Sequence record: NC_073083.1
Strand: one strand, 5' to 3'
DNA length: 44,963 nucleotides
Source of the DNA: Escherichia phage BF9
The position numbers and the translations under genes were made by a program. The notes under the pieces are model-generated. The model saw only the letters and a program-made list of their open reading frames with translations. It was not told where the DNA came from and searched no databases. How positions within the stretch are numbered: position 1 is the first letter of the stretch; the number at the start of each line of letters is the position of its first letter. Below are positions 1-43,387 of this stretch, in pieces.

Positions 1-1610
1 CCTTCCAGCTTCTCCACTTTCCGCAACAGGTGAACGAAGGCGGCGCACAGATCCATCAACAGCACGTTACTATCGAGAGTCAGCACATCGTCTGTGTACC
101 CGATTTCCTTTCGGTCGATTACAACTTCGTTCCCTTCCTCGTCCACCCCCTTGATATCCTCATAAATGGCATAACCCGGCAGCAAGTGTACGTATTCTGG
201 GTCAATCCTTGCCAGATCCTGTGCGATAAGGCCGTATCGCTGTACGTCCGACTCCTTATACTTGAACATTGCCGGAAGCCATTGACGAACGCGGTTGTAG
301 CTTTCCTCGCCGTCAGTGTATTGGATTTCTTTTTTAAGGTCGCGGTCTGATAGCGGCGCTTTCTGGAACTCGTTAACCGAAGGGTTGCCGCTGGTACCAC
401 TAATCAGCCTTTGGTCTGGCATAAAGCGGAATAAAGCCTCACTGACACCACTTTTCCACACGTGGACGCGGTAGTCTGACAAGTGGGTGTCGCCCGCACG
501 CACAAGTCCTGCGCGTGCCCAGTCTATATACCACCGATGCATTGTATGCCCCACCCAGTTATCTACCCCATACAGCGCGTTTGACAGACTGGTAGAGTTA
601 GCCTCTAATGCCTTTAACACTACTGACTCGCCGCCATTCAGGTGCAGCGCACCCAACTTAACCAAACTATCATCACCAACCCCAAGATTAGTGCGCGCCT
701 CCGCTGCCGTTGTTGCTGCCGTGCCGCCTTTTTCGATGGGTACGGTGTTCTCCGTAGCTACAGACCCCAAACCAAGATTAGCGCGTGCTGCAGATTTATC
801 TGCGACGTCTGCCAGGTTCTGCGACTTCTTCATGAATTGCGTAGGGTCGATCGCGTTTTTGAAGTCTTCGGCTTCATCCCGATACCCCTGCGCGGCATCG
901 CGGGCGGCTTGCGCGTCCGTCTTCGCTGTATTGGCCTGATCTCGAATAACGCCAGTATCAGTCTTAATCTGGTTCGTCTGGTCCTTGATGGTCTGCGTAT
1001 CAGTCTTGATCTGGTCCGTCTGCGTCTTGATGGTATTAGTGGCGTCGTGGATCGCCTGCGTATCCGCCTTAATCTGATTGGTGGCGTCGCGAATACCCGC
1101 CGTCTCGGTCTTGAAGCCTTCGGCCTCATTGCGAAATCCTTGCGCGGCGGCTTCCGATGCGGCTGCTTGTTGTTGCAGGTTGCGCATCTCAACTGGGTCG
1201 ATCTGTTTCATCAACTGCGACAGATAGCCCCATGACATGCCCTGCATAACCTGCCCGTTAGGTAACGTCACTGTGATTTCTTCAGCGTCGCCGAAGATTG
1301 CACGCCAGTTGTTTTCATCTGCAATCATCAAGCGCAATGCTTTTTGGGCCTGTACGGTAACGCCCATCGTTGCCAGTGACATGGTATCGCGCTTAACGCC
1401 ATCCCACGCAAGACCGGTTGCCGTTGGGCCGTCGAACGGTAACACTAGCGTAAGCGCGGTCTCGCTTTCAATGGACGCGATCGCAACCGTGTAAGGCACT
1501 TGCCCCACCACCAGAGTTAAGAAGTCGCCAGCGTTAAACGAGGTAAACGTTGTGCCGACCCCTACAACCGCCTTGCTGTTATTCGTTACGGATAGAGTTC
1601 CCGCTGCCAT
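1..1610 (-). CDS. Tail fiber protein with C-terminal intramolecular-chaperone-like domain; 3' end runs off the window start and is represented again at 44688..44963
   Basis: ATG at 1610..1608 preceded by GAGGA. Hand translation begins MAAGTLSVTNNSKAVVGVGTTFTSF, has a central run of degenerate repeats (IKADTQAIHDATNTIKTQTDQIKTDTQTIKDQTNQIKTD), and ends with SDVQRYGLIAQDLARIDPEYV, which resembles the auto-cleaving chaperone domain of endosialidase-type fibers. Not in the ORF track because the frame has no stop before position 1. Confidence 0.6.
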   Translation of the reverse strand, partial: MAAGTLSVTNNSKAVVGVGTTFTSFNAGDFLTLVVGQVPYTVAIASIESETALTLVLPFDGPTATGLAWDGVKRDTMSLATMGVTVQAQKALRLMIADENNWRAIFGDAEEITVTLPNGQVMQGMSWGYLSQLMKQIDPVEMRNLQQQAAASEAAAQGFRNEAEGFKTETAGIRDATNQIKADTQAIHDATNTIKTQTDQIKTDTQTIKDQTNQIKTDTGVIRDQANTAKTDAQAARDAAQGYRDEAEDFKNAIDPTQFMKKSQNLADVADKSAARANLGLGSVATENTVPIEKGGTAATTAAEARTNLGVGDDSLVKLGALHLNGGESVVLKALEANSTSLSNALYGVDNWVGHTMHRWYIDWARAGLVRAGDTHLSDYRVHVWKSGVSEALFRFMPDQRLISGTSGNPSVNEFQKAPLSDRDLKKEIQYTDGEESYNRVRQWLPAMFKYKESDVQRYGLIAQDLARIDPEYVHLLPGYAIYEDIKGVDEEGNEVVIDRKEIGYTDDVLTLDSNVLLMDLCAAFVHLLRKVEKLE

Positions 1611-2907: not shown

Positions 2908-5900
2908 TTACCACGTCCCAACTTTCACCCTACCTCCTCCAGGTAATGGCACGTTAATGCCGGTTGCGTCGATCTGTACCGACCCGCCGGAGAAACCGAA
3001 GTTACCAGTGGTCGCGAACAAGTTGCCGCGTACCGTTACGTTGTTGAACTCCGCCCAGCCATCCTTCGCGATACGCCAGCCGCTGCTACCTGGATTCCAG
3101 TTATTCGATTGCAGCGTGTCCGTGATCTGTGCGAAGTTGATGGACGCGTTCTTGATGCGCGCCGTGTCGATGTACACCTGACCGCCGTCAACGATAAACG
3201 CAGACGAAAGTGACCCATTCGACGGGTGCATGATGTAGAACTGGTCCGCCTTGAACGCGATGCTGGATTTAACCGCACCGCCTTCCACCACAACTGAAAG
3301 CTGCATACCGGCATCATAGTAAGTCCCGTTATACGTCACGCCAGCATTAAGGCTGTATGTGGCACTACCGCCAGCATGGTTAAACGAAGACGTCATCTTC
3401 TGCTCGATAGCTGCGGACTGCTGACCGAACTGCGCCGCTACCTGGGTCTTGTACTCCGCCAGCGCTCCCGCTACGTCTGCCGTTGCCGTTTGTACCTGCT
3501 GGATGGCAGCTTCCTGTTCCCCGAACTTAGCGGCAACAGTTTGTTGGTACTGGGCGAACGCTTGTTCGTGCGTGCTTTGCGCGGTCTGCAACGTGTGGAT
3601 CGCCGCTTCCGCATCGTCAAGGCGAGTACCGATCAACGTCTCAAGTTGCGCGACCGCCTTGTGGGCATCCGCCGCCACGTTATACGCTACCTTGATTTCT
3701 GCGTAGATCCCCTGGTACTCGGCGCGGGCGTTAAACAATTGCTGTGCGTCCGTGAGCATGGCTTCATAAATGCCTTGCGGCATGGTGTCGATCGCTTCCT
3801 GGAAGCGTTTACCATCCTCTGAAGTCAAGAACTCGTCGTCCAACCCCTTCATATACTCGTCAACTTTGTCACTCACCTGGCCTTCAAACGGGGCTGACCA
3901 GTCCGACAGGTTGCCGATTTTATCCGCTACGCGGGCGCGCAACTGCTGGTAGATCCCGAACTCCAGCGACGTTTGCGCATAGTCCGATCCCGGATATGGG
4001 ACGTTGGTCAAGAACTTCCATTCCGTTTCGCCCCGCTTGCGCACTTCAAGCTCGGTGTAAGAGATATCCGTCGCGGCGTTGTTGTGGTTCCACTTCCACA
4101 AAATTTGGTGAAGGCCCGAAATCGCGTTGGTGATGATAGGCGCGTTAAGCCCGCCGAGACGACCTTCGATCGGCGTGATGGCAGACGACACCCACGGGGA
4201 TGAAATCTCACCCATACCGATTGCGCGGACGCGTGCCTGGTAGTTACCGGAGAACACGTTAGGGATGTGAGCGCCGTTCGATGCCGTGCGAGGGATGTTC
4301 ACCCAGTCGTTACCCCACTGGATTTCCATATTCTGCAAGCTGGTACGTCGCCACTGGATTTCATATACAACGGCATCCTTCACCGGCGGGAAAACAATAT
4401 CCACGTTGGTGATTAGCTGGCCTTGCGATGAAATCTGCGACGGGGTGATGGTCACGGACTCCGGCCCCTTCATTACGCCGTCAGGTACTTGCGTAAAGAT
4501 GCCTGGGTCAAGGCGAGCGCCATTATCAACGGCATCATATTTGCTATCGTTGTACTCGATCCCGCGCACTGAAAAAGTGCTGGTAGAGTCGTCATATTCC
4601 AGGTCGGTGATGCGGAACTTCTGCAACTGGATATCATCGCCATCAACGCAAAACGGCTGGTCTGGAATCGGGTCGGCGTCCAGTGCGGTTTTTAGCGTAA
4701 CCTTGTTGCCGTTGACGCTGGCGATCTCGCGAGTCTCCACATTACCGCTATCGGTGCGTACCAGGAATTTATCGCCAGGGCGGAACGTGATTTCGCTGTC
4801 TGTGTTCAGCACCGTCCGCGTGCCCGGATCTGACAACAGGCGACCGCCGCGTGTCTCGAAGCCGCCAGAAATGTTTGTATCGGCGATCGCTACTACGCTA
4901 CCCGGAATAAAGAATAGTCCTTCCATGCCAACCTTAAAGCTAACTTGCTGGTCAAGCTGGTTGGAGATTAGCGCCCAGTGCCCCCGGCGTTGCGCTTCTG
5001 ATTCACGCGTACAGCCGATCGCCGTTATATCGAGACGGTTAATCTTATGGCGGCGTACCAGTTCGACACGTTGCCCCGTTGCGATGGCATCCTCATAGTG
5101 GTTCTTCGGGTTGCCGTATGCTACCGCGAACGTGGAATAGCGAGTTTTCTGGCTCCCTGACGCGTAGTCGAATCTGCCATCAATAACAGAGGCGTTGGTG
5201 ATAGTGTGCGATACCGCTGCGACCGGCTGGTCACTTACGATATTCAACATCTGGTTGCCCCACCAGGTCATACCGGCAAAGATGGCGGCTAAATCCTTAA
5301 GCACGGTCCAGGCGTCGGTCTGCGACTGGATGTACATATCATTCTTAAATCGGATTTCCTGCCCGCCGTTGCCGTCGCTGACAAGCTGGTCACAGCGCTG
5401 CGCAATCTGGTAGAGCGCGTACCGGTTCAGCATTTGCGGCTTGATCCTACGACCGAGGCCGAAGCGCTCAGTAATACAAATATCGTACCAGTGCCACGCA
5501 GGGTTGTCCGTCCAGGCGCGTTTAAACGTGCCATCCCAGTCGCCCGAATATGTATGATTAATCGGGTCGTAGTTGTTCGGAACCAGCACTTTGCGGCCTT
5601 TGCACTTGATGGACACCCGAGGGATGTTCTGAAACGCTTTAGCGTCGAACTCCACGAACAACAGCGCGGTTAGCGGGTAGCGCAGGCGGGCGTCGATAAT
5701 CTCAGTGATTGATTGCACCTGAATATCGTTCACCACTTTTGCCGATGTGGAATCAGCCGTTGTGCGGTGCACTTCCACGCGCCAGCCAGTGTTAACGTTC
5801 GGCGGTAACTCGATGCGGTGGTCTCGCTCGTACAGCGACATTGTTTTACCAACGGCAGCAAATGTAAACTCGCGCGGATCTGCGTTATCCGTATACACAA

Positions 5901-6354
5901 CGATTTTATAGTCGATGCGCCCGCCTACCAGGTCGCCATTATCTTCGTTGGTGTACAAAGCCGGAATGCCGATTCGAATGCGCACGGCGTCAAGACTTGT
6001 GTCATTAATCTGGCGCACCCACGGCGTGCCGTTTTCCAGTTTTACGCCTACTGTTTGCTCACTTTCCACCGCGGAAAATCCGTGGATTACATCCTGGTGC
6101 TGTGTGCCTGGGCGGAACTCCACGCGCGCGCCGGGGAAGTTTTCCGACAGGTCGGCGTTCTGGATCGGTGTGCCGTCCAGGTATACGCGCTGCCGTAATT
6201 CGTTAGGGTCGGGAATACCTTCGAATTCCCCTTCACCCAGCGCAAGCAAGATGCGGATTTTAGCCAGGGAATGCAGGCTGTCCGGCGTTTCCTGCGGGGT
6301 GTGCTGTTTGCCTCCGCCGCCTTTATGGCCTGTAACGTCGTAGATAATCGTCAT
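2908..6354 (-). CDS. Central tail fiber / host specificity protein (lambda gpJ-like), 1148 aa
   Basis: Size, position after the K and I homologs, and conserved gpJ-type N-terminus MTIIYDVTGHKGGGGK...LLALGEGEFEG. Confidence 0.85.
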   Translation of the reverse strand: MTIIYDVTGHKGGGGKQHTPQETPDSLHSLAKIRILLALGEGEFEGIPDPNELRQRVYLDGTPIQNADLSENFPGARVEFRPGTQHQDVIHGFSAVESEQTVGVKLENGTPWVRQINDTSLDAVRIRIGIPALYTNEDNGDLVGGRIDYKIVVYTDNADPREFTFAAVGKTMSLYERDHRIELPPNVNTGWRVEVHRTTADSTSAKVVNDIQVQSITEIIDARLRYPLTALLFVEFDAKAFQNIPRVSIKCKGRKVLVPNNYDPINHTYSGDWDGTFKRAWTDNPAWHWYDICITERFGLGRRIKPQMLNRYALYQIAQRCDQLVSDGNGGQEIRFKNDMYIQSQTDAWTVLKDLAAIFAGMTWWGNQMLNIVSDQPVAAVSHTITNASVIDGRFDYASGSQKTRYSTFAVAYGNPKNHYEDAIATGQRVELVRRHKINRLDITAIGCTRESEAQRRGHWALISNQLDQQVSFKVGMEGLFFIPGSVVAIADTNISGGFETRGGRLLSDPGTRTVLNTDSEITFRPGDKFLVRTDSGNVETREIASVNGNKVTLKTALDADPIPDQPFCVDGDDIQLQKFRITDLEYDDSTSTFSVRGIEYNDSKYDAVDNGARLDPGIFTQVPDGVMKGPESVTITPSQISSQGQLITNVDIVFPPVKDAVVYEIQWRRTSLQNMEIQWGNDWVNIPRTASNGAHIPNVFSGNYQARVRAIGMGEISSPWVSSAITPIEGRLGGLNAPIITNAISGLHQILWKWNHNNAATDISYTELEVRKRGETEWKFLTNVPYPGSDYAQTSLEFGIYQQLRARVADKIGNLSDWSAPFEGQVSDKVDEYMKGLDDEFLTSEDGKRFQEAIDTMPQGIYEAMLTDAQQLFNARAEYQGIYAEIKVAYNVAADAHKAVAQLETLIGTRLDDAEAAIHTLQTAQSTHEQAFAQYQQTVAAKFGEQEAAIQQVQTATADVAGALAEYKTQVAAQFGQQSAAIEQKMTSSFNHAGGSATYSLNAGVTYNGTYYDAGMQLSVVVEGGAVKSSIAFKADQFYIMHPSNGSLSSAFIVDGGQVYIDTARIKNASINFAQITDTLQSNNWNPGSSGWRIAKDGWAEFNNVTVRGNLFATTGNFGFSGGSVQIDATGINVPLPGGGRVKVGTW

Positions 6355-6968
6355 TCGTTCAAATCCTCGGTTACGATTCCGGCTGAAATAATAGCGCCGC
6401 CGATCTCACGCTCGCCCCATAATACACCAAGTGCCGTGCCTTGCGCGGTGGTGTTCACTGGTCCGCCGAACGCATACGACGCCTTGTTATCCACGTCCTG
6501 CCTTGTCTGCAATCCTTTCGGTTGCGGTGATAACAATTGCATAACGCCACCCAGCGCCATCGACATCCCGAACGAAAACGTCGCTGCACCGATAGAGGCC
6601 GCGGTCGCCGCTGAAGCTCCGAAAGCGGCAGTCGCAAGCCCGCCGGTATAGAACGACGCCACCACGATTGCTACACCCGCCAGCAATTGGCCCAGTCCGC
6701 TTTTTGCGCCAGTCATAACCGGCGCGATGGTCACTACGCGGTCGCCGTGTAACTCACCCAACTCGTCGTAGCCGGTCATAGTGTGATTGCCCTTGCGCAC
6801 TTTGAACATCATATTGTCCAGGTGGGCAGACATTAGAAAGTCCTGTAATCCTGGTAACTTCACGCACAGGCCGGTGATACCCTCGCCCGGTGTGAAGCAG
6901 TCCAGCTTGTGCACTTTACCGAATCGACGTCCTAAAACGCCGTATAATTTAAATGTGGTCATTGCCAT
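6351..6968 (-). CDS. Tail assembly protein (lambda gpI-like)
   Basis: 205 aa between the K-like and J-like genes, with a Gly/Ala-rich hydrophobic C-terminus; 4 bp overlap with the J gene. Confidence 0.7.
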   Translation of the reverse strand: MAMTTFKLYGVLGRRFGKVHKLDCFTPGEGITGLCVKLPGLQDFLMSAHLDNMMFKVRKGNHTMTGYDELGELHGDRVVTIAPVMTGAKSGLGQLLAGVAIVVASFYTGGLATAAFGASAATAASIGAATFSFGMSMALGGVMQLLSPQPKGLQTRQDVDNKASYAFGGPVNTTAQGTALGVLWGEREIGGAIISAGIVTEDLNE

Positions 6969-18550: not shown

Positions 18551-18779
18551 GAATTATTTTCTGCAACTCCAGCACTTGCGCCCTCAGCTTCGCACCACAT
18601 TCCATATTTTTCACGTCAATCATCAAATCTTCGTCGGGGTCCGCGGACGGGTTATCGAACTTGCACGGCGGTCGCAGTGCCGACTCCGTTAGCGGCATCA
18701 ACGGCACGTTGCTTGATCCGCACGCGCTCAGCATCAAAACTACAATCAGGGCGGTTAGGGCGCGTAACATATTTAACAA
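18540..18779 (-). CDS. o-spanin (Rz1-like outer-membrane lipoprotein)
   Basis: MLNMLRALTALIVVLMLSACGSS has a lipobox; the mature part is Pro-rich with conserved Cys. The gene lies in the +1 frame overlapping the 3' end of the i-spanin gene and extends beyond it. RBS AAGAGG. Confidence 0.7.
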   Translation of the reverse strand: MLNMLRALTALIVVLMLSACGSSNVPLMPLTESALRPPCKFDNPSADPDEDLMIDVKNMECGAKLRAQVLELQKIIRGP

Positions 18780-18981
18780 CCTCTTTCGTGATAGTCCGGT
18801 ATTCTACGTCGCGGGCTTGTTCGGCCTGCACGGAGCGCTCAATAACTTTAGTTTGCTGCCGTTGGGCTTTCGCTTGCGCTTCTTGCGCCGCTCTCGCCTC
18901 AACGCCAGTGCGGTAGGAATCACCCTGCCAGAATCCAACCGCCAGACCTATAACCAGTCCGATCGCCGCGTATTTAATCAC
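18652..18981 (-). CDS. i-spanin (Rz-like)
   Basis: N-terminal transmembrane segment (AAIGLVIGLAVGFW) followed by a Gln/Ala-rich coiled-coil. Start is uncertain: the track uses TTG at 19011; I prefer GTG at about 18981, which has CAGGGGG upstream. Confidence 0.6.
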   Translation of the reverse strand: MIKYAAIGLVIGLAVGFWQGDSYRTGVEARAAQEAQAKAQRQQTKVIERSVQAEQARDVEYRTITKEVVKYVTRPNRPDCSFDAERVRIKQRAVDAANGVGTATAVQVR

Positions 18982-20077
18982 GCCATAGCCCCCTGTTTTT
19001 AAGCTGTGCAATAGTCATCAATTCGCCCGTATCGGTGAACATCTTCGGCACTTTCACGCCTCGCATAATCTGGTCTGCGCGCTGCACCCCATATAATTCC
19101 TCCAGAATATGGCGCGGCTGGCGCTGCACCCATGAGAAGAAATCAGTCTGCGCGTCGACCTGCTCACTCAGCAATCTGCCCGCTTCAGCCTTCAGTGCCG
19201 GACGCTTACCACTGGGCCAATCTTCCATACCTTTGACTTTCCACGTCTCCGTCGAACGGCAGCAATAATGCAGCTTGCCAGGACCAGCGCCATATTGTGA
19301 CCCCGCCACCACTTTCCCGCCGCGCTTTCCTTTGGTGTCGGGAGTAACATCAACTGGATAAAACAGGCGATCGCGTAGCTGGCACATGGGAGAAGTATGC
19401 GTGTCCAATGTAGCCAACCATTGGCGACCTTCGAGAATATCGTCATTAGCTTTTACCATTAATTCGCGGGCGGTTGCCGCATAGTGGTTGACCGCGGACT
19501 TAACAACGCTTGAGATTGCTTGCGCACTACGACCGCCTAGCGCGCGCCTCACGTCCGCAATAATTTCCATAGTCGGCTTGCCCTGGATGAATCCAGCGCG
19601 CACCTGATTGCCGATCTGCGTCCTGGTCCACTCGGAAAGTGAGTCAGGCCATTGCATCATGGTGTTACCCTGGAACGGGTTTTTCATTGCAGTCGCTGCG
19701 ATCTGCGCGCCGGTCACAACACCCACCACCTCGACAGCCGGTACGGCGACCGCTGGCTGGATCGCTGCCGTTAATGTGTCGGCGAGATAATCAGCCTCGG
19801 TGTCTGCGAACTCCTGAAGGCTTTCAGCCAGCGCCTTAAACTCGGTGCGCAGTTCCGTTTTGACGGTCTTGTCGAGTTGCGTTAAAAGTGTGGTAAGTGC
19901 CTTGTTGCTCATGGACTTTTTGCCATCAAGTAACTCGGTCAGCTTACCCAGTAAAGCGGGCCGGAACTTCTCCCACATAGCCAGCACCCTTCGCGCCTGG
20001 TCATTGCTCAGGCGCTGGGTGAAGATGTGACGGCGAATCATTCGATCCGCCATATATTGATTAATTGTCTTCGCCAT
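18974..20077 (-). CDS. Head morphogenesis / minor head protein (phage Mu gpF-like)
   Basis: 367 aa directly downstream of the portal gene; WLATLDTHTSPMC-type region typical of the Mu F family. Confidence 0.7.
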   Translation of the reverse strand: MAKTINQYMADRMIRRHIFTQRLSNDQARRVLAMWEKFRPALLGKLTELLDGKKSMSNKALTTLLTQLDKTVKTELRTEFKALAESLQEFADTEADYLADTLTAAIQPAVAVPAVEVVGVVTGAQIAATAMKNPFQGNTMMQWPDSLSEWTRTQIGNQVRAGFIQGKPTMEIIADVRRALGGRSAQAISSVVKSAVNHYAATARELMVKANDDILEGRQWLATLDTHTSPMCQLRDRLFYPVDVTPDTKGKRGGKVVAGSQYGAGPGKLHYCCRSTETWKVKGMEDWPSGKRPALKAEAGRLLSEQVDAQTDFFSWVQRQPRHILEELYGVQRADQIMRGVKVPKMFTDTGELMTIAQLKNRGLWRD

Positions 20078-21591: not shown

Positions 21592-22977
21592 TTAGTAGAA
21601 GTCTACAGTTGGAACAACGGCGATTGGGCGAATCACTGGGAACAGGTGCGCAATTGGATAGCCCGCGGCATCGTTCATGTGGTCCACACCGGCGGTTTTA
21701 TCCGGCTCGCCTTTCTTCAGGTCGTAAACCTGCTGTTCCAGACATTTCGCTAGTGTAGGGCATTTATCCAGGTTGACAAAATACTGGCGCACGCCCTTCG
21801 AGTTGCACATCATCGTATTCATCGCGATCAATCGGTCTTTCACAGGTGGGTTAACACTGTCATACTCCACCTCGAAGCCCGCGTCTTCCAGTTGCGCTAT
21901 ATCGGACGATGATGCGTTGACAGTCTTGCGAGACTTGCCGCTGCTATCCGGGTAAACGACAACACGACCGGCAGCACAATGATCGGGGTATCGCTCCTCG
22001 ATCGCCTCAATCATAGCCGGGGTGTCAAACAGGTCCACAAATTCATCCACTGCGTGGATCTCGTCGCGGAACTCCTTGTTTTCGGTGATGCGCTGCCGTC
22101 TGACGTACACGACCGCCGCCATCTTCGTGACGTTAAAGTCCATACCGATAATCAGCGTGTCTTCCGGCTGAACTTCTTCGGTGCTGGCGTTCTCCTCGCG
22201 GTTAAACATCTTGTATACAGCGCCCGACGTAAGGTTGACAAACAGGCCGTTCAGGTACGCATCAATCAGGTTAGACGGGTACTGACTGCGCAGCGTGTCG
22301 ATAAAGTCTGCCGGTAGGTGGTGGTTATCGGTAGTCTTCGCCCGGATCAAACGTTTCTGGCTATCCTTCTCCACTTCGAAAATCTGGTACATCGCCCGGA
22401 AGCCTTCCGGCGTGGATACGATGACGAACTGGCGTACCAAGCCCGCACGAAGACGACCAAGCAATTTGTGATAAGCCGCCATCGCTACGTCTTGCTTCGT
22501 GGTGTCGAACTCGTCGGCAACAATCCACGCGGCGTTGACCCCGATCAGGCGGGTATAGTTCTCCATTGATTCACAGATAACGCGGGTCCATTTGCCTTTC
22601 ACCAGCACGCTATAAATCTTGTCCTGCTTATTGAACTTCCACCGGAAGCCCGCCTCGTCGAAAGCCTTCTCCAGTTCCGGGTACATGATCTTAACCAGGA
22701 GGGGAATAGTCGGTTCTGTAACGATGCCATCATGACCGGGGTTCAGGGTTAAAAGCTGGATGACCTTACGTGCCGCAACCCATGACTTACCGCCACCGAA
22801 GCCGGAGCACAGGCCGAGGATTTTAGTCTTCGTGTCGCGCAGTAGTTCCACCTGGTGCGGAAGGCAATCAGGTTGATACAGGCGGACGGCCTGCGCAACG
22901 CGTGTCGGGCGCGGCGGTCGGTTTCTCTTTGCGATCGCTCGTTCAAGGGCGCGATGTTCTGCCGCATAGTTACGCAT
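21592..22977 (-). CDS. Terminase large subunit
   Basis: 461 aa; P-loop (LCSGFGGGKSW) near the N-terminus and an acidic nuclease-like C-terminal half; follows the TerS gene. Confidence 0.8.
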   Translation of the reverse strand: MRNYAAEHRALERAIAKRNRPPRPTRVAQAVRLYQPDCLPHQVELLRDTKTKILGLCSGFGGGKSWVAARKVIQLLTLNPGHDGIVTEPTIPLLVKIMYPELEKAFDEAGFRWKFNKQDKIYSVLVKGKWTRVICESMENYTRLIGVNAAWIVADEFDTTKQDVAMAAYHKLLGRLRAGLVRQFVIVSTPEGFRAMYQIFEVEKDSQKRLIRAKTTDNHHLPADFIDTLRSQYPSNLIDAYLNGLFVNLTSGAVYKMFNREENASTEEVQPEDTLIIGMDFNVTKMAAVVYVRRQRITENKEFRDEIHAVDEFVDLFDTPAMIEAIEERYPDHCAAGRVVVYPDSSGKSRKTVNASSSDIAQLEDAGFEVEYDSVNPPVKDRLIAMNTMMCNSKGVRQYFVNLDKCPTLAKCLEQQVYDLKKGEPDKTAGVDHMNDAAGYPIAHLFPVIRPIAVVPTVDFY

Positions 22978-23528
22978 TAATCACCCTGACCTTTGCCGGT
23001 AGGTTCCACAACGACGTCGCCGTTATCATCTTCGTCGTCATCCAGCGGTACATCGTCCCGGACGCCGTGGTTTGCTTTAAGCAGGAAGGTAGCGAAGCCC
23101 GCCGCGATGGTCACGCCGCCAGCTTCCATCAGGAAGGTTTTCTGTAGCTCCATAGCGTCAGCCATCGCCTCGGCGAACTCCTCATGTGCGCGCGCCCAGC
23201 GATAAAGGCAGGCGACGCCTACGCCAATCTTTGCGGCGAAGCGACCGAAGGTAGGCATCATGTTGCGGGGGATTACTTGCGCAGCACCCTTGTCGGAGTA
23301 GTTAACTTGCCAGGCTACGGCATCGGCAAAATAGCGACGAAGCTGATCACAATAAACGGTGCGGTAGTCGGTTGGGCGTCCACATTTGCCACCCCTACGG
23401 CGCTTGCCGTATTCGATCTCCGGTCCGAGATTGGTGTGTTCTGTTTGCTCGCCTGGTTTACGGCGCGGGGTAACTGCTACTCGTCCGTCCAGTTTAGCGC
23501 GACGGCCCTTAACTTTGATTTCTGCCAT
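22977..23528 (-). CDS. Terminase small subunit (putative)
   Basis: Basic N-terminus, acidic C-terminal tail, abuts the TerL start; start taken as the internal ATG (MAEIKVKGRR) of track ORF 22977..23549. Confidence 0.55.
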   Translation of the reverse strand: MAEIKVKGRRAKLDGRVAVTPRRKPGEQTEHTNLGPEIEYGKRRRGGKCGRPTDYRTVYCDQLRRYFADAVAWQVNYSDKGAAQVIPRNMMPTFGRFAAKIGVGVACLYRWARAHEEFAEAMADAMELQKTFLMEAGGVTIAAGFATFLLKANHGVRDDVPLDDDEDDNGDVVVEPTGKGQGD

Positions 23529-23644
23529 GATATAAGCCCTTTTGTGCATATGCGCCGACCATCGGCAACATAGGAGACGGCCCTGCCATCTAAGGGGATT
23601 ATAACAGGCACAAAAAAGCCCACCAAATCGGCGGGCTAGGAGGG

Positions 23645-23857
23645 TTAAAAGGGGCGACCGTAGTATCGGGTTAACATGCTTTTTACTTCGCTTATAGCGC
23701 CTTCTGTGTAGCGTATTTGCGATAGTATCTCGATCCGCTCGCTGATAGACATGCCTATCGCCGCTGCCGTTCGTTCGAATCGGCGCAAGCCTTCGAGTTG
23801 TTTGCGTAGCTCTTTCAGGCGTGCGGCCTGCGTGCTCATGAATACTTGTCTAATCAT
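23645..23857 (-). CDS. Hypothetical small protein (70 aa)
   Basis: Track ORF whose end overlaps the upstream gene by 4 bp, suggesting translational coupling. Confidence 0.4.
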   Translation of the reverse strand: MIRQVFMSTQAARLKELRKQLEGLRRFERTAAAIGMSISERIEILSQIRYTEGAISEVKSMLTRYYGRPF

Positions 23858-24996
23858 TTCAACATTTCCGGGCTAATGGTTAAGCGCGCTACTTCGCCGT
23901 AGTTGGCGCTGTAGGTAATGACATTGGCGCTACGACCGGACATCCAACCGCCGCGGCTGGCATATGCGTCTTTCGCCGCGAGTGTCCGGTGCTGCTCAAC
24001 AATCATGTTGCGGGATTCTACAATCTTCTGGTGGTGCAAGTGGCCTATATGCGCGTAGCTGTACTCGCTGGCCCCGAAAGCCTGTCTGAATTTAGAAATC
24101 ATGACGGTTTCGATAGCATCGAAGCGCGCTTTGTGCCCGTGGTGGAAGAACAGCGTTGTTTTACCGTGTTGCACCATTTTGTACACATCCGGGGATGTAT
24201 CCACATCGACGCGCGGCTCGTTATCATACAGAGTATTGAACATTTCGGCCAGCCAAATCATGCCAGACTCGTCATGATTCCCCTGGACGATTAGAAGTTT
24301 GACTTTGTGGTGTTTTTGCAGCGCCAGGTCTACCACGTTGCGCACCATGCGAATCATGTAGCGGACCAGCTTCTGGTAACGGGTATCCGCGTCCAGTACG
24401 TGACCGCTGGCAGGTGTGACGGCATCGAGGCTATCAAAGTGGGCCATATCCCCGAGGATATTGATAACGGCAGTGCCTGCGTCCGGTGCGCGTGCGAAGG
24501 CTTCGACAAACCAGCGGTAGAACAGGTCTTCGGCAATCGCCATATCCCAATCCTCGCCAGTCTCCTCGCCCCAGGCCAACATGCCCAGGTGGAAGTCGGA
24601 CACGGTGTACAGGTTGAGTAGGTCAAGTGCCTGGATCGGGACTGGTGGGGCGCTTACTGGTGCTGCCGGAGTGATTTCGCTGTTCATACCTTCGACAACG
24701 GCGCGCATTGCTTCAAGCTGGCGCTCCTTGTCCTGCTCAGTGATAACCCACGACATGACTTCTTCGCCATTGCCGCGCACCAGGGCGGATACGCGCTTAA
24801 CGCCGAAGCCATCGGCAACGCGCTTACGGATTACGGCATCGTTACCGTGACCAATACCTTTCTTCGACAGGCGGGCTTTGCGCATGTAGACATTTCGAAG
24901 AGCAATTCCGTACTTCTTCGCAATCTCTTTCGCGGTAGTGCCGGATTGCAACTCGGTGATCAATTGCTCGTCGGTGATTTTAGTTTGCGGGTGCAT
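23854..24996 (-). CDS. Calcineurin-like metallophosphoesterase with N-terminal helix-turn-helix domain
   Basis: N-terminal TAKEIAKKYGIALRNVYMR looks like an HTH; metallophosphatase motifs GDMAHFD, GNHDE and GHLHH are present. Confidence 0.6.
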   Translation of the reverse strand: MHPQTKITDEQLITELQSGTTAKEIAKKYGIALRNVYMRKARLSKKGIGHGNDAVIRKRVADGFGVKRVSALVRGNGEEVMSWVITEQDKERQLEAMRAVVEGMNSEITPAAPVSAPPVPIQALDLLNLYTVSDFHLGMLAWGEETGEDWDMAIAEDLFYRWFVEAFARAPDAGTAVINILGDMAHFDSLDAVTPASGHVLDADTRYQKLVRYMIRMVRNVVDLALQKHHKVKLLIVQGNHDESGMIWLAEMFNTLYDNEPRVDVDTSPDVYKMVQHGKTTLFFHHGHKARFDAIETVMISKFRQAFGASEYSYAHIGHLHHQKIVESRNMIVEQHRTLAAKDAYASRGGWMSGRSANVITYSANYGEVARLTISPEMLK

Positions 24997-25233
24997 ATTA
25001 ATTCACTTCCAGATTATGGGACCGAGGACAATATACCACGGTCCCTATTGCGGCGGGTTATAGCAATTCGCAAATAACCATGCCGATAAAAGCCGCGGTG
25101 GTCCAGATCGCTAATACCCAAATATCTTTACGTGCCATCTTGATTACTCCTCCAGTTGATTGGTTGCAGTATGGCCCCTGTGTTGGTTGCGAGTCAAGCA
25201 ATAAAAAGCCCGGTTAATTCCGGGCTTAATTGT

Positions 25234-32427: not shown

Positions 32428-32616
32428 ATGGCTATATTCTTTGTTTTATTTCGTTGCCGTATCACCGGCGACGAGCAACCAGAAATTGTTATGAATCAAA
32501 ACTGGAATTGCTGCTGGACGCAAGCCCGAGAACTGGCATCGACCATGAACGAAGCCGCGAAGCGGGCCAATGTTAAACACGACTATTACATTGCTCAATT
32601 TTCAAGGGTGGAATAA
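32428..32616 (+). CDS. Hypothetical protein (62 aa)
   Basis: Track ORF with RBS GGGAGA; tightly packed between neighbours. Confidence 0.4.
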   Translation: MAIFFVLFRCRITGDEQPEIVMNQNWNCCWTQARELASTMNEAAKRANVKHDYYIAQFSRVE

Positions 32617-34046
32617 TGGCGATTAAACCAAAACGTAAAACGCAATCCGGTAGCAACACGGAGCATTCATTACTCGGCCCATCCGGTGCTAAAAAATGGA
32701 TGGGTTGCCCTGCCGCCCTGGTGGTGGAAAAAGATATCCCGAACGAATCCGGGCAAGCGGCGATTAATGGTACGAGTATGCACACCGTATCTGAAGTGGT
32801 GCTAAACCGCATTATCGCCGGGGAGAAGCTGATAACCGCGAAGACTTACAAAGGGTGTTACGTCGAGAACGAAGGTAAGGGACCGGTAAAGGCGCACCCG
32901 AAAGCACCGAAAGGCGGCGTACTGGTCAACGACGACATGGTGAAACAGTGCGACGCGTACATCGACCACTGGCGACCGCTCCTCGAAGTGGCGGAGTTTG
33001 TTCGGCTTGAGATGCGCGCCGATCTTACCCGCGTCCTACACTCTGGCTTCGAGGTCAACGGCAACCGGGTTAAGACGTTCGGTACTGCCGATATGGTCAT
33101 GGTCATGAAGAAGACCGACGGCACGTACATGCTGATTGTTGGCGACCTGAAGACGGGGCGGCATAAGGTCGAGGCGAAAGAAAACAAACAGCTTATGTTG
33201 TACGCGCTCGGCCTGCTGCGCAAGCTGAAAACTATGTACGACATTACGACCGTGCGCCTGGTTATCTTCCAGCCGTATTGCGGTGGGGCGTCGGAGTGGG
33301 ATATTTCGGTAGAAGCCCTGGAGATATTCGCTAAGTTTGCGTCCAAGCGTGCTATCGCCGCCCTGGAAGCGTACGCCCGAGGCAAAAAGGGACTCACCCG
33401 CGCCGACTTCCGACCGAGCGTTGATGCGTGTCAGTGGTGTCGATTTGCGGATCAGTGTAGCGCCCGCGCTAAGGCTGCAATCGACACGATGACCCCACCA
33501 ACGGCAACAGACGAAGACCTGGGCGACGACGTGAGTATTGCGACAGAGGAAGAATGCGCCAATCTCGACCGCAATATGGCCCGCGAAGCCCGCAAAGCGG
33601 CACGACGTGAGAAGCGTGGTAAGAAAGAAGCGGCCCCCGGCGCTATGACCGCCGCGGAACTTCGCAAGGCATATGAAGGTCTAGACGCAATGCGCCAGCA
33701 CATCAAGGCTATCGAGTCCGCGGTATTCAAGGCGGTTATGGCGGGCGATGGCGAATCGCTGGGCCTCAAGATGGTTGCCGGTAAGGAAGGGATCCGCAAG
33801 TGGGCGGACGAAAGCGAAGTGATTGAAATCTTCACGAAGGCCAGGATCAAGCGCGATGTGATGTACAAAGAAACATTACTCAGCCCTACCGATGCCGAAA
33901 AGGTACTGAAGGACGAGAAGCCGAAAGTGTGGGCGAAGCTGTGTGATAAAATCACGCGCGCACCGGCAAAACCGGTATTAGCACCAATCGACGACCCGCG
34001 CCCTGCGTGGTCTGAAGCCACTGACGAGGACTTAAGCAATGAATAA
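32616..34046 (+). CDS. PD-(D/E)xK nuclease with Cys cluster (Cas4/RecB-like, DUF2800-type exonuclease)
   Basis: 476 aa; D...VGDLKTGRHKV...QLMLYALGL core; N-terminal Cys plus C-terminal CQWCRFADQC, the pattern seen in Cas4-like Fe-S nucleases. Confidence 0.55.
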   Translation: MAIKPKRKTQSGSNTEHSLLGPSGAKKWMGCPAALVVEKDIPNESGQAAINGTSMHTVSEVVLNRIIAGEKLITAKTYKGCYVENEGKGPVKAHPKAPKGGVLVNDDMVKQCDAYIDHWRPLLEVAEFVRLEMRADLTRVLHSGFEVNGNRVKTFGTADMVMVMKKTDGTYMLIVGDLKTGRHKVEAKENKQLMLYALGLLRKLKTMYDITTVRLVIFQPYCGGASEWDISVEALEIFAKFASKRAIAALEAYARGKKGLTRADFRPSVDACQWCRFADQCSARAKAAIDTMTPPTATDEDLGDDVSIATEEECANLDRNMAREARKAARREKRGKKEAAPGAMTAAELRKAYEGLDAMRQHIKAIESAVFKAVMAGDGESLGLKMVAGKEGIRKWADESEVIEIFTKARIKRDVMYKETLLSPTDAEKVLKDEKPKVWAKLCDKITRAPAKPVLAPIDDPRPAWSEATDEDLSNE

Positions 34047-37617: not shown

Positions 37618-37665
37618 CGGAAACGTCAGGCAATATTGTCTGGCGTTTTCTTTTTCGGGGGGTAT

Positions 37666-38268
37666 ATGAAACATTGTGGGCGTTGTAATACGGATAAAGA
37701 TGAGTCCGCTTTCAACAAGGGTCAGTCGTGGTGTGCCAAATGCATGGCGGCGTATAAGAAAGAGAGACGTGATAAGGAAAGAGGAGCGCCGCCGCGCGAA
37801 GTATGGCGAGAGTATACCGGGGAGATCGTAACGTGCCGTCAGTGCGGGGAACGCAAGCCGCTTACGCCGGAAAACTTCCGGCCCGGAAACCGGGCAAGCC
37901 AGTCACACATTCGTAAAGAATGCAGGTCGTGCTCTAATAAGTCCCGCCGTGAGTACAACCACCGGACACCAGAGATCCGAGCTTACTATAAGCTCTTTCA
38001 GTACCGTAAGGCGGACGAAAGGAAGGGGCTAACCACCGACCTAACCACCGAGGACGTGCTACGCCTTACTTCTCAACCATGCGCATACTGCGGATTCACC
38101 GGCGACAATGGCGCGGACCGACTCGACAACGCAGTAGGCCATACGAAAGATAACTGCGTGCCGTGCTGCGTAGAGTGCAACATAGCCCGCGGGGACCGGT
38201 TTACCCCGGACGAAATGAAGAAGTTTATCGGACCGGCCATCGCGGCCGTAAGGAAAAGCCGACAATGA
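37666..38268 (+). CDS. HNH endonuclease-like, Cys-rich (zinc finger) protein
   Basis: Several CxxC pairs (CGRC, CAKC, CRQC, CRSC, CAYC, CCVEC) and DRLDN...GHT...N, HNH-like; start at MKHCGRC with RBS GGGGGG. Confidence 0.5.
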   Translation: MKHCGRCNTDKDESAFNKGQSWCAKCMAAYKKERRDKERGAPPREVWREYTGEIVTCRQCGERKPLTPENFRPGNRASQSHIRKECRSCSNKSRREYNHRTPEIRAYYKLFQYRKADERKGLTTDLTTEDVLRLTSQPCAYCGFTGDNGADRLDNAVGHTKDNCVPCCVECNIARGDRFTPDEMKKFIGPAIAAVRKSRQ

Positions 38269-39023: not shown

Positions 39024-40448
39024 ATGGCACGATTCCGACGCCGCGAATATCAGAAGTTGATAACCGCGTTCATCCTCAAGCATAAGCGATGTAATATCTG
39101 GGCGACAATGGGTTCCGGTAAAACCGGCGCGACAATGTGGGCGCTGAATAAAATGTTCCAGACGGGTATCCTGTCCTACCAGGAGGACCGCGTACTGGTG
39201 CTGGCCCCGCTGCGCGTTGCGTCAGGTACGTGGCCCCCGGAGCAAGAAAAATGGCGATTCCCCGCCCTGCTGGTAGTAGACGGCACAGGACCAGAGAAGG
39301 ACCGCATAGCCGCGCTGGAGAGTAACGCTAATGTGGTTTGTGTTAACTATGATGTAGTTGAGTGGCTGGTTGACTATTACGGCGATGCGTGGCCCTTTAC
39401 GGTCGTTGTTGCCGATGAATCGACTAAGCTGAAAGGCTACCGAAGCAAGCAGGGAAGTAAGCGCGCACGCGCACTGGCGGCGATTGCACATAAGCACGTC
39501 AAGCGCTGGATTAACCTGACCGGCACACCAGCGCCAAACGGGCTGAAAGACTTATGGGGTCAGACGTGGTTTGTCGACGGTGGCGAACGCCTCGGCAGTA
39601 GCTATACGGCATTTACGGATCGCTGGTTTATTAGCAAGCCTGTTAAGCCTGGCAGCTTCACGATGCAGCACGCCCCGCTAAAGAACTCCGAGAAAGAAAT
39701 ACAACAACGCCTGTCTGACGTATCACTAACCGTTGACGCGGCTGAATACTTCGGATGTGACAAGCCAATATATACGCCGGTTGTTGTGGATCTGCCGAAG
39801 AAAGCCCGCAAGATTTACGACCAGTTTGAAAGCGAGCTATTTGCCGAACTGGAAAGCGGAACAGTGGAAGCGGCGAACGCGGCATCGAAGACCATCAAGT
39901 GCCTTCAGCTTGCTTCCGGCGCTGTGTATAAGGTGGACGAAGACGGCGAACGGACCGACGAGTGGGTGAAGATTCACGACGCGAAGCTGGACGCGCTGGA
40001 AAGTATCGTGGAGGAATTGAACGGGGCGCCGTTGCTCGTTGCGTATCAGTATAAGCATGATCTGGCACGTCTTAAGAAGAAATTCCCGCACGGCGTCGCG
40101 ATGGGTAAGGGTAAGCAAGGAAATAAGGATATGGAAGCGTGGAACAGGGGTGAGATCCCCATCATGTTCGCGCACCCGGCATCGGCGGGTCACGGCCTTA
40201 ACTTGCAGGATGGCGGACACCACCTTGCTATATTCTCAGACACCTGGAACTATGAGCACTTTGCGCAGATCGTGGAGCGTATCGGGCCAGTTCGCCAGAT
40301 GCAAGCCGGACACCCTCGTCCCGTATTCGTCTACATTATCCAGGCGCGCGGCACACTGGACGAACTGGTTGCCGAACGTCGCGACAGTAAGCGCGATATT
40401 CAGGATGACCTGATGGAATACATGAAAGCTAAAAAGGCGCGCAAATGA
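39024..40448 (+). CDS. Superfamily 2 DNA helicase (SNF2/DEAD-like)
   Basis: Walker A MGSGKTG, DEAH-like VVADEST, and a C-terminal helicase domain; start at MARFRRREYQ, internal to track ORF 38934..40448. Confidence 0.7.
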   Translation: MARFRRREYQKLITAFILKHKRCNIWATMGSGKTGATMWALNKMFQTGILSYQEDRVLVLAPLRVASGTWPPEQEKWRFPALLVVDGTGPEKDRIAALESNANVVCVNYDVVEWLVDYYGDAWPFTVVVADESTKLKGYRSKQGSKRARALAAIAHKHVKRWINLTGTPAPNGLKDLWGQTWFVDGGERLGSSYTAFTDRWFISKPVKPGSFTMQHAPLKNSEKEIQQRLSDVSLTVDAAEYFGCDKPIYTPVVVDLPKKARKIYDQFESELFAELESGTVEAANAASKTIKCLQLASGAVYKVDEDGERTDEWVKIHDAKLDALESIVEELNGAPLLVAYQYKHDLARLKKKFPHGVAMGKGKQGNKDMEAWNRGEIPIMFAHPASAGHGLNLQDGGHHLAIFSDTWNYEHFAQIVERIGPVRQMQAGHPRPVFVYIIQARGTLDELVAERRDSKRDIQDDLMEYMKAKKARK

Positions 40449-41140
40449 TAATTTGGTCATTGTTCGACGGCAGCGGCTTGATGATTGAGCGTGCGGCCGA
40501 GATGGGGCATAAGTGTTATTGCTTCAACTACTCCGAAGCCGACCACGGGTCGTACCTGGACTACCGGATTTATGGGCGCGGTATCCGATATCGTAATGAG
40601 TTTATCGATCTGGACTTCGTGGACCGCGCGATGAATGGTGATTTCGGCACGCCGGATATCATTTATGCATTCCCGCCGTGTACGGATCTGGCGGTTAGCG
40701 GTGCGCCAGCGTTCCCGCGCAAACGCGCCCGCGACCCTGCCTTCCAGCTTAAGGCGGTGCGCACCGCGAAGATCGCCGCTTACCTGGGTGATTTCTTTGA
40801 AGTGCCGTATATGATTGAGAATCCGCGCAGCGTGCTATCAACTCAATGGCGTAAGCCTGACCACTCGTTTGACCCGTGGGAGTATGGCGGATATCTGCCG
40901 GAGGATGACGTACACCCGTTATTCCCTGAATACATCAACGCCCGCGATTCATATCCGAAGCTGACCTGCTTATGGACCGGCAACGGCTTCCGTATGCCAG
41001 AGAAGAAACCTGTTTTCGTTGAAAAAGGGTACTCGAAGCAGTATAGTCGCCTCGGAGGCAAATCTGCCCGCACCAAATTAATCAGGTCGCTCACCCCGCG
41101 CGGCTTCGCGATAGCGGTTAACGAGGAAAATTTAAAATGA
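40445..41140 (+). CDS. Putative DNA (cytosine-5) methyltransferase-like protein, short (231 aa)
   Basis: LFDGSG (motif I-like), AFPPCTDLAVSG (PC catalytic motif-like), MIENPRS (ENV-like); shorter than typical C5 methyltransferases. Confidence 0.4.
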   Translation: MIIWSLFDGSGLMIERAAEMGHKCYCFNYSEADHGSYLDYRIYGRGIRYRNEFIDLDFVDRAMNGDFGTPDIIYAFPPCTDLAVSGAPAFPRKRARDPAFQLKAVRTAKIAAYLGDFFEVPYMIENPRSVLSTQWRKPDHSFDPWEYGGYLPEDDVHPLFPEYINARDSYPKLTCLWTGNGFRMPEKKPVFVEKGYSKQYSRLGGKSARTKLIRSLTPRGFAIAVNEENLK

Positions 41141-41784: not shown

Positions 41785-42243
41785 ATGAAAATTTTACAAG
41801 AAGAAAAAGCATACTGGGCCGCGCAATGCCTCGAAGCCCGCGAACAGGCCGACCGTGCGAACGCGTTGGCGGACACCAACCAGGCGCTATATGAAGGCGA
41901 GGAGAAGGCGCGCAAGGAATTAGAGGAGCGCTTCGATCTGCTGTATGAGTTGATGGGTATTATGCAGCGCACCGGATACACCACCACCGTCGCGCTAAAC
42001 CGCATCACTGCCGAAGGTCTGCGCGAGCATTGCAAACGTGCCGAGGAGTACGTGCGTCCGAAGGGTCGTCAGTCTAAGATCGACCGGAAAGACCTGGTGC
42101 TTATGGCGTGGCGCGCAAACGGTAGCTACTACTCCGATTGCCGACCGCTTAGCGTCGAGGGAGCAAAGCGCCGGCAACGCGTTCTAAACAGTGGTAAGAA
42201 AATTGCCCTGTACGCGATAGATCAAGACCATGCAGAAGAGTGA
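41785..42243 (+). CDS. Hypothetical protein (152 aa), coiled-coil N-terminus
   Basis: Track ORF, tightly coupled to its neighbours. Confidence 0.45.
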   Translation: MKILQEEKAYWAAQCLEAREQADRANALADTNQALYEGEEKARKELEERFDLLYELMGIMQRTGYTTTVALNRITAEGLREHCKRAEEYVRPKGRQSKIDRKDLVLMAWRANGSYYSDCRPLSVEGAKRRQRVLNSGKKIALYAIDQDHAEE

Positions 42244-42715
42244 GCAGAAAGATAGCTGGCGCACACCGCCAGCTTTATTTAAACCGCTTCGTCGGAAATA
42301 CCGATTCCGTTACGATATGGCGGCGAGCGACGCCAATCATCTGCTACCGCGTTACTTCACGGCGGAGCACAGCGCGCTTGATGTGGACTGGGCAGAGTTG
42401 AAAGGGTGGAAATGGTGCAATCCGCCGTATTCCGACCCGCTGCCGTGGGTGGAATGCGCAGCGCACGGTCGCCGGACTGTCATGCTACTGAATCAGGATA
42501 CGTCGACGAAGTGGGCGAAGTTGGCCCGGAAGACTGCAAACCTGATAATTCTTCTGGACTGGCGGATACGATTTATACATGCTGTCACCGGCGAAGTCGG
42601 TCCGAGCAATAACAAGTGCCAGCAATTGATAATCTTTGACGAAGCGCCGCCCATCGGCAGCGCACAAATTGAAATAATGAGCGAGAGTGAGTTACATGAA
42701 TATCTTAATCGTTGA
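42230..42715 (+). CDS. DNA N6-adenine methyltransferase (phage Dam-like)
   Basis: 161 aa with the NPPY motif (WCNPPYSD) and a conserved N-terminal WRTPP. Confidence 0.6.
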   Translation: MQKSEQKDSWRTPPALFKPLRRKYRFRYDMAASDANHLLPRYFTAEHSALDVDWAELKGWKWCNPPYSDPLPWVECAAHGRRTVMLLNQDTSTKWAKLARKTANLIILLDWRIRFIHAVTGEVGPSNNKCQQLIIFDEAPPIGSAQIEIMSESELHEYLNR

Positions 42716-42920
42716 CCGCGACCCCGAGGTCGTATACCGGATTCAAAAAGACTACGGCATCGACCAGCGCCGCGATCGTGTGAAGCGCGTGTCACGTCCC
42801 GAACATATCCAGGGCCTGGATCTTACCGGCTGGCTTGTCATGACACAGCGATGCCATTTCGTATGCAACTCCATTACCGCGCGCAGCGCCCGATACACCC
42901 TTATTGAGAGCTTAAAATGA
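42696..42920 (+). CDS. Hypothetical protein (74 aa)
   Basis: Internal ATG (MNILIVD) of track ORF 42687..42920. Confidence 0.35.
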   Translation: MNILIVDRDPEVVYRIQKDYGIDQRRDRVKRVSRPEHIQGLDLTGWLVMTQRCHFVCNSITARSARYTLIESLK

Positions 42921-43387
42921 AACTACTGATTTGTGATCTGGATGGCGTTATTAACGGTTCAAGTGATGCGCGCGCCGACCTGGTGCCGGGGATAAAAACG
43001 AAATCAACATTTTGGGCGAAGTGGCACAAAGCGCACGTACGCGAAGACCTGAACATGGATATGCTGCCGCTGTTGCGCATGTACAAAGAGCAAGGCTTCG
43101 AGATCGCGTATCTGACGAACCGGCAGCGCGAATGTTGGGACACCACCGCCGAGCAATTGGAGGTCTTCCCCGTAGGTCGATTGTTCATGCGCCACATGCT
43201 GGACGACACCCCGCCGCCAGAGTTTAAGGCGTGCGCCGTTTTCAAAATGGTCTGCTATGCGGACGTGTCGGAACTGGTCATCATTGAAGACTGTCCGAAG
43301 AACATCGCGGCAATTCGTCGGGCGTGTGGTGATTTGGTCCCGAAAATTTACGCAATAAACGTTGCAAAATTCACTTGCAACCAATAG
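42917..43387 (+). CDS. HAD-superfamily hydrolase-like protein (possible nucleotidase/phosphatase)
   Basis: N-terminal LLICDLDGVI matches HAD motif I (DxDG). Confidence 0.45.
   Translation: MKLLICDLDGVINGSSDARADLVPGIKTKSTFWAKWHKAHVREDLNMDMLPLLRMYKEQGFEIAYLTNRQRECWDTTAEQLEVFPVGRLFMRHMLDDTPPPEFKACAVFKMVCYADVSELVIIEDCPKNIAAIRRACGDLVPKIYAINVAKFTCNQ

Follow-up and report, generated by a model that had tools for sequence, protein, structure and literature searches.

A helix-turn-helix metallophosphoesterase of the T1 gp16 family in Escherichia phage BF9 is a candidate DNA nuclease

We analyzed a 44,963-nucleotide stretch of DNA from Escherichia phage BF9 (sequence record NC_073083.1), referred to here as the window, and focused on a minus-strand gene at positions 23,854 to 24,996 that encodes a metallophosphoesterase (MPE) with an N-terminal helix-turn-helix (HTH). 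The protein belongs to the T1 gp16 / PHROG 704 family. With roughly even confidence, we read it as a stand-alone DNA phosphodiesterase (nuclease) with a binuclear metal centre that would act in DNA metabolism during infection. We favour this reading because the metal ligands in its motifs are invariant, Mre11/SbcD is the sole MPE matched in the Protein Data Bank (PDB), the HTH is present in most of the family, and genes of replication and nucleotide salvage neighbour it in other phages. Within a known and very widespread phage family, this copy is unremarkable.

The open reading frame (ORF) of 380 amino acids had been proposed at exactly these coordinates from the sequence alone (the original prediction), with the strand left unstated. 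It starts with ATG, carries a GGAAG ribosome-binding site 9 nucleotides upstream of the start, and the interval includes the stop codon. The window comes from a Dhillonvirus, an HK578-like coliphage, and the region shares 92-95% nucleotide identity with dozens of such genomes (155 matching records). The ORF is evidently not a chance one, because its product has 3344 homologues in a set of 5.8 billion proteins and because an exhaustive HMMER search returned 4620 clusters at 50% identity, 1127 of them at E < 1e-30, with most members 370-420 amino acids long. The gene and the parts of its catalytic domain are listed below.

23854..24996 (-): coding sequence of the HTH-metallophosphoesterase, T1 gp16 / PHROG 704 family (ORF listing, PHROG match, identity to T1 gp16)
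23857..24636 (-): MPE catalytic domain, residues 121-380
24583..24600 (-): motif I, SDFHLG, residues 133-138
24433..24453 (-): motif II, GDMAHFD, residues 182-188
24268..24282 (-): motif III, GNHDE, residues 239-243
24130..24147 (-): motif IV, FHHGHK, residues 284-289
24031..24045 (-): motif V, GHLHH, residues 318-322

The calcineurin-like superfamily is defined by five motifs (DxH, GDxx[DH], GNH[DE], H and GHxH) that provide a binuclear metal centre with its ligands. All five are present in the window protein, on a beta-sandwich MPE fold. GDMAHFD, GNHDE and GHLHH had been recognized in the original prediction, and we found motifs I and IV in addition. We assessed conservation in an alignment of 71 homologues with 32-81% identity to the window protein. 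Residues D134, H136, G182, D183, N240, H241, H286, G318 and H321 are invariant, and H186, D188, H285, H288 and H319 are at least 90% conserved. The ligand conservation was reproduced with the catalytic core alone. The prediction had depended on metal ligands being conserved in alignment, and on this point it stands.

We compared the MPE protein with known structures. The fold-comparison values are listed as given.

15.8: PolD DP1 proofreading exonuclease
14.9: T. maritima Mre11
14.8: S. aureus SbcD
13.7: LpxH
13.5: MJ0936
12.4-13.3: further Mre11/SbcD entries
12.6: GpdQ
12.2: Rv0805
11.8: diadenosine tetraphosphate (Ap4A) hydrolase 3qfm
9.3: P. putida nuclease MPE
8.6-9.1: PPP protein phosphatases

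Mre11 and DP1 were also the top structures found by Foldseek (E 6e-8 to 5e-7). When the family profile was searched against the PDB, T. maritima Mre11/SbcD was the only MPE retrieved, and motifs I (DxHLG), II (GDxxH), III and V were in register with it. A PDB search with the single sequence gave only spurious matches to designed repeat proteins, which we rejected. The profile and structure comparisons separate the families among which the original prediction had not chosen: on these models the protein is Mre11/SbcD/DP1-like and clearly not lambda-phosphatase-like, the Ap4A hydrolase and the PPP enzymes rank lower, and the lead over small-molecule phosphodiesterases is modest. We place the protein outside the Mre11/SbcD family itself because the similarity to that family is insignificant, no capping domain follows the nuclease domain (the chain stops 58 residues past motif V), and no Rad50/SbcC-type ATPase is encoded among the DNA-metabolism ORFs of the window or among the 68 annotated genes of Bas84, a phage closely related to it.

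Two modules precede the catalytic domain.

24862..24972 (-): N-terminal HTH, LuxR/GerE-like, residues 9-45 (AlphaFold, Pfam, Foldseek, PDB profile)
24679..24807 (-): family-specific beta-hairpin (residues 64-88, with invariant W83) and helix 90-106, linking the HTH to the catalytic domain (AlphaFold)

The full-length AlphaFold model has a predicted local distance difference test score (pLDDT) of 92.5 and a predicted template modelling score (pTM) of 0.79. The HTH helices span residues 9-17, 22-29 and 33-45 (pLDDT 92-95) and are followed by a flexible stretch, the beta-hairpin (64-73, 79-88), the helix, a proline-rich linker and, from residue 121, the catalytic domain. We scanned the 71 family members with Pfam models and matched HTH_1 in 15, Sigma70_r4_2 in 12 (best 1.5e-9) and GerE in seven (best 2.4e-8); the HTH_8, HTH_28 and HTH_23 models match family members as well. 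The window protein's own Pfam HTH matches, at E 0.02-0.05 (GerE at E 0.022), fall below the curated thresholds, and its PDB profile match to GerE has E 0.028. In a separate model of residues 1-112 (pLDDT 86.7), the first ~60 residues align to DosR, LiaR, VraR, GerE and RcsB, and Foldseek retrieves LuxR/NarL-type DNA-binding domains with probabilities of 0.96-0.97 and weak E-values of 0.09-0.4. We regard the modelled N-terminus as a well-supported HTH; its LuxR subtype is drawn from weak scores, and other HTH models match too. The HTH-like segment of the original prediction is thus borne out by the AlphaFold helices, the Pfam HTH models and the Foldseek matches.

Sub-profiles detected the hairpin-helix in 137 of 150 family representatives and the HTH in 130. 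All three parts, HTH, hairpin-helix and MPE, occur together in 122, and the window protein has this architecture. Foldseek gave no structural match for the hairpin-helix module. A search of a large protein database with the N-terminal-domain alignment returned only five fragments and no sign of fusion to other enzymes.

The family is broadly distributed among phages. The window protein matches PHROG 704 ("DNA repair exonuclease") at E 2.4e-160, with residues 5-380 aligned to profile positions 2-390 of 390, and T1 gp16 (ST16) is 45% identical to it across all 377 residues, HTH included. Using tblastn, we found relatives in 2028 of 50,697 deposited phage genomes, which include Dhillonvirus, Jerseyvirus, Drexlerviridae, Klebsiella, Vibrio and Xanthomonas phages and N4-like roseophages. 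In Drexlerviridae the family is core, and a module of exonuclease, holin, endolysin and spanin is found in 508 of 522 genomes (PMC13164509). The window protein scores below the Pfam curated cut-offs (20.1 vs 21.5 bits for PF00149 Metallophos and 21.8 vs 27 for PF12850), only 18 of the 71 members match PF00149 at E ≤ 0.01, and no NCBIfam, PADLOC or Pfam model covers the protein at threshold. The T1 gp16 family appears to be a divergent MPE branch outside Pfam coverage. Its name, "DNA repair exonuclease", is automated annotation only. We also noted an annotation-consistency problem: at least seven GenBank product names are in use for the same orthologous gene (hypothetical protein, phosphoesterase, DNA repair exonuclease, transcriptional regulator, oxidoreductase, protein phosphatase and DNA polymerase II small subunit).

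On the minus strand the gene order is helicase-primase, small ORFs, two holins, endolysin, MPE, a 70-amino-acid ORF, TerS, TerL and portal. The MPE gene had been predicted to lie just upstream of the terminase genes, which is correct with two additions, the 70-amino-acid ORF and an intrinsic terminator before TerS. The signals and genes that flank it are as follows.

25206..25227 (-): intrinsic-terminator-like hairpin, AAGCCCGG-6-CCGGGCTT then a T run (terminator scan, folding)
25030..25038 (-): extended -10 element TGgTATATT, ~35 nucleotides upstream of the ATG (conservation in seven Dhillonviruses)
23645..23857 (-): 70-amino-acid helical ORF, PHROG 20931, its ATG overlapping the MPE stop codon (ATGA)
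23617..23637 (-): strong intrinsic terminator, AGCCCGCC-5-GGTGGGCT then TTTTTTG, between the MPE unit and TerS (terminator scan, folding)
22977..23549 (-): TerS
21592..22977 (-): TerL

When seven Dhillonviruses were aligned, the best-conserved non-coding block upstream of the MPE gene had the invariant core CCGTG(G/A)TATATTG. This -10 core is kept whatever the upstream neighbour, be it a 26-amino-acid hydrophobic ORF, a gene with an immunoglobulin-like (Ig-like) domain or the endolysin region. Judged by its consensus, the extended -10 element is probably the MPE gene's own promoter. The hairpin at 25206..25227 (-16.6 kcal/mol, z -3.6) has a kept equivalent in other Dhillonviruses and is predicted to close the lysis-gene unit upstream of the MPE unit. 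The terminator at 23617..23637 folds at -15.1 kcal/mol (z -3.2), and none of 200 shuffled sequences folded as well. The gene would then form an insulated unit of terminator, extended -10 promoter, MPE gene (with the optional 70-amino-acid ORF) and terminator, so that host RNA polymerase could transcribe it independently of the downstream packaging genes.

The 26-amino-acid hydrophobic ORF (MARKDIWVLAIWTTAAFIGMVICELL; 25058..25138, minus strand) has a GGAGG ribosome-binding site and is flanked on one side by a terminator/promoter-like pair (25227..25206 and 25197..25168) and on the other by the MPE gene. Bas84 and L-h 1M share it, and other sequence occupies the position in Ioannina, Pride, Kenya-K19 and TheodorHerzl. 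The 70-amino-acid ORF, which is translationally coupled to the MPE gene through the ATGA overlap, has counterparts of 87-94% identity in Ioannina and Bas84. A helical structure is predicted for it, PHROG 20931 is its sole family match, and no NCBIfam or PADLOC model matched it. We consider it an accessory gene by its distribution, because the only 73 phage records that contain it are all Dhillonvirus-type and because phage Pride lacks it; there the absence is clean (Pride 1281..1388) and TerS directly follows the MPE gene. We rejected the possibility that it is an obligate partner or immunity protein, as it occurs in part of the genus only and Pride does without it.

The gene context in other phages was sampled from annotated phage records. 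In an N4-like roseophage the gene adjoins thymidylate synthase and dCTP deaminase, and in Jedunavirus it follows the primase. Other neighbours are a Dam methylase and a helicase, and in some Drexlerviridae a deoxynucleoside monophosphate (dNMP) kinase or a polynucleotide kinase (PNK) gene is adjacent (PMC13164509). In T1, 32 kb separate gp16 from TerS; the next genes after gp16 are an HNH gene, a small ORF and those for holin, endolysin and spanin, and gp16 has its own terminator. In the Hanrivervirus vB_EcoS_G29-2 (Drexlerviridae) the gene immediately precedes holin, endolysin and spanin, two Vibrio phages carry it between lysis and head genes, and in Jerseyvirus it is part of a divergent island among tail genes. 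A temperate-looking Xanthomonas phage carries it just after the Q antiterminator.

A homing-type HNH gene directly follows the MPE orthologue in T1 (42028..42510), Jerseyvirus KE15 (6159..6659) and Vibrio phage 97E28-1b (5010..5519), and is absent at this place in the window. This arrangement in three unrelated phage groups suggests that homing endonucleases repeatedly land at the MPE gene.

In the reading we favour, the LuxR/GerE-type HTH and the hairpin-helix would replace the capping domain and the ATPase partner, and would presumably hold a metal-dependent active site on duplex DNA. Most likely the enzyme would process phage replication or recombination intermediates, degrade the host chromosome as a supply for nucleotide salvage, or do both. 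Functional precedents come from other phages. A10ZJ24 gp48, the cluster-A orthologue of Bxb1 gp47, acts as a phosphodiesterase. It breaks down linear, plasmid and genomic DNA in vitro, and its destruction of host DNA in vivo depends on motif residues (PMC12287305). T5 A1, which is required for host DNA degradation, is a predicted metallophosphatase that resembles double-strand-break-repair nucleases and polymerase proofreading subunits (bioRxiv 10.64898/2026.04.02.716235). The original prediction had offered a DNA-directed nuclease or repair activity, a protein phosphatase that alters host signalling and a part in packaging. The first is the best-supported interpretation, from fold, motifs and HTH, and the other two fared poorly, as described below.

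Several observations weigh against a nuclease. The sequence similarity to Mre11/SbcD is insignificant (E 0.39-1.6, profile against PDB). No homology of the family could be detected to Bxb1 gp47 (hhalign probability 5.8%) or to T5 A1 (16.7%, over only 19 columns around motif III), and the similarity to both stays within the superfamily motifs. An HTH-enzyme fusion can also mark a regulator rather than a DNA cutter. Lysis genes neighbour the MPE gene in four phage groups, a pattern that a nuclease leaves unaccounted for, although this recurring neighbourhood may reflect only the shared ancestry of a module. The placement after the Q antiterminator in the Xanthomonas phage fits poorly with an early host-destroying role. 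We found no biochemical or genetic study of any T1 gp16 / PHROG 704 member in the literature searched, and we found nothing on the function of the family when looking for defence-escape mutations in the Dhillonvirus SECphi4/18, m6dAMP sensors, transcriptomes and the T1 host-degradation gene.

A more specific version of the nuclease reading concerns T1-type siphophages. Degradation of the host chromosome by these phages was reportedly described in 1981, and mutants lacking it are said to show a raised transduction frequency. To our knowledge, the T1 gene responsible has not been tied to a sequence; a link to T1 "gene 2.5" is presumed from the 1981 papers. It is conceivable, but in our judgement unlikely, that the T1 gp16 family is the nuclease behind this degradation, with the HTH directing or restraining the cutting (for example, host versus phage DNA). 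That T1-type phages degrade the host chromosome is known (PMC11447400, with its references 46-47) and also speaks for the nuclease reading in general. If the proposal were true, the family would be a fused version of T5 A1 and A2, and would represent a third independent phage recruitment of an Mre11/DP1-like phosphoesterase for host takeover.

The alternative that survives best, though we think it distinctly less probable than a nuclease, is a small-molecule phosphodiesterase. Such an enzyme could act on cyclic (oligo)nucleotide immune signals, 2',3'-cyclic nucleoside monophosphates (2',3'-cNMP), Ap4A or the pools of deoxynucleoside tri- and diphosphates (dNTP/dNDP), with the HTH serving as a transcription factor or in some non-catalytic way. 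The thin structural margins speak for it. However, it is hard to see what an enzyme for soluble nucleotides would do with a DNA-binding domain that is conserved in most of the family, DNA nucleases account for the top-ranked structures and for all PDB sequence matches, and no PADLOC defence-system model was matched.

It is rather improbable that the protein is an enzyme-regulator fusion, that is, mainly a sequence-specific transcription factor whose MPE part senses or modifies a ligand. In its favour, HTHs of the LuxR/GerE type are classical transcription-factor domains, and one relative has been deposited under the name transcriptional regulator. We also observed an inverted repeat, GGGACCGAGG / CCACGGTCCC, with arms 8 nucleotides apart (25018..25045), which brackets the MPE -10 element and is unique in the window. 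We examined this repeat as an operator and as evidence for autoregulation and rejected it. Its arms are not conserved in other Dhillonviruses, where only the -10 core is kept, and its half-site occurs at chance level in the genome (8 observed vs 6.95 expected). Because the arms vary among Dhillonviruses, the repeat is probably not a conserved operator. The catalytic residues, on the other hand, are all invariant, which argues for selection on catalysis.

An end-healing enzyme is a still less probable explanation. Here the MPE would be a 2',3'-cyclic phosphodiesterase or 3'-phosphatase that works with PNK-like and ligase-like genes, as does the MPE domain of Clostridium thermocellum Pnkp. A 2',3'-cyclic phosphodiesterase activity is a property of both CthPnkp and lambda phosphatase (PMC2190708). 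Among the window proteins there are matches to the PHROG families called polynucleotide kinase and DNA ligase, and in some Drexlerviridae the PNK gene comes directly after the MPE gene (PMC13164509). The phage "PNK", which this scheme takes to be kinase-only, is, however, HAD-phosphatase-like, so another phosphatase is not needed, which weakens this explanation. The gene in question, at 42917..43387 (+), matches the PHROG polynucleotide kinase family, but its only Pfam match is the HAD phosphatase Acid_phosphat_B; from its sequence, the product looks like the 3'-phosphatase half of Pnkp without the kinase domain.

We give very little credence to a role in packaging, in which the protein would be a nuclease that assists the terminase from the place that an HNH endonuclease occupies in HK97-like phages. 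In this genus the MPE gene is on the same strand as TerS and ~300 nucleotides upstream of it, and the Xanthomonas phage carries the gene a few genes before TerL. These points are outweighed by the absence of an HNH fold and by the gene's own conserved putative promoter and strong terminator before TerS, which argue against co-transcription with the terminase genes. Adjacency to the terminase genes is found in Dhillonvirus only and is not conserved in T1, Jerseyvirus, Jedunavirus or the N4-like phage. Equally remote is a lambda-type Ser/Thr/Tyr protein phosphatase that rewires host signalling: it would belong to the same superfamily, and one relative has been deposited with the label "protein phosphatase (phage lambda like)", but the PPP signatures (GDxHG, GDxVDRG and GNHE) are missing from the window protein, structural similarity to PPP enzymes is not close, and their fold rank is low (8.6-9.1).

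Other genes of DNA metabolism were noted in the window. A 476-amino-acid PD-(D/E)XK / DUF2800 exonuclease (PHROG 69; 32616..34046, plus strand) is the phage's other sizeable nuclease. An endonuclease VII-like gene lies at 37636..38268 (+), two DNA methyltransferases lie at 40445..41140 (+) and 42230..42715 (+), and Bas84 is annotated with a T7 gp2.5-like SSB (a protein that binds single-stranded DNA). With regard to the lysis genes, i-spanin and o-spanin are annotated in Bas84 just after the head-morphogenesis gene (4548..4989), ~7 kb from holin and endolysin, so that the lysis genes do not form a single cluster in that genome. The equivalent in the window would be at about 18650..19010 (-).

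For this window the interest of the gene is modest, as it is one more ordinary copy. As a family-level question the interest is greater. Drexlerviridae, Dhillonvirus and Jerseyvirus phages all have the family among their core genes, many such phages are used for phage therapy and biocontrol, and the automated labels of the family contradict one another. Whether a nuclease degrades host DNA or serves replication matters for transduction risk, for the nucleotide economy of infection and for the triggering of bacterial genome-degradation sensors.

We compared the protein with known systems. The lambda Ser/Thr phosphatase (PPP) and the ApaH-type diadenosine tetraphosphatases have the same superfamily fold and metal-binding logic. 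In its build, the compact 260-residue catalytic domain of the MPE protein resembles the nuclease domains of Mre11/SbcD and of DP1 from archaeal PolD, but the window protein has an N-terminal HTH that these lack, and no DP2 polymerase partner. Bxb1 gp47 and A10ZJ24 gp48 are structurally similar but unrelated in sequence, and would be a functional precedent rather than fellow members; Bxb1 gp47 is 255 amino acids long, is without an HTH and moonlights as an integrase directionality factor. T5 A1 is a pre-early gene product of 556 amino acids that is restricted to Demerecviridae. By the record annotation, A1 acts together with A2, a DNA-binding protein encoded separately, for which we found no Pfam match, and the pair may be loosely analogous to the fusion of HTH and MPE. 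T1 gp16 belongs to the same three-part family, and the gene has its own terminator at its 3' side in both T1 and the window phage. T1 gp16 is located upstream of the lysis cassette, whereas the Dhillonvirus gene is located downstream of the lysis cassette and upstream of TerS.

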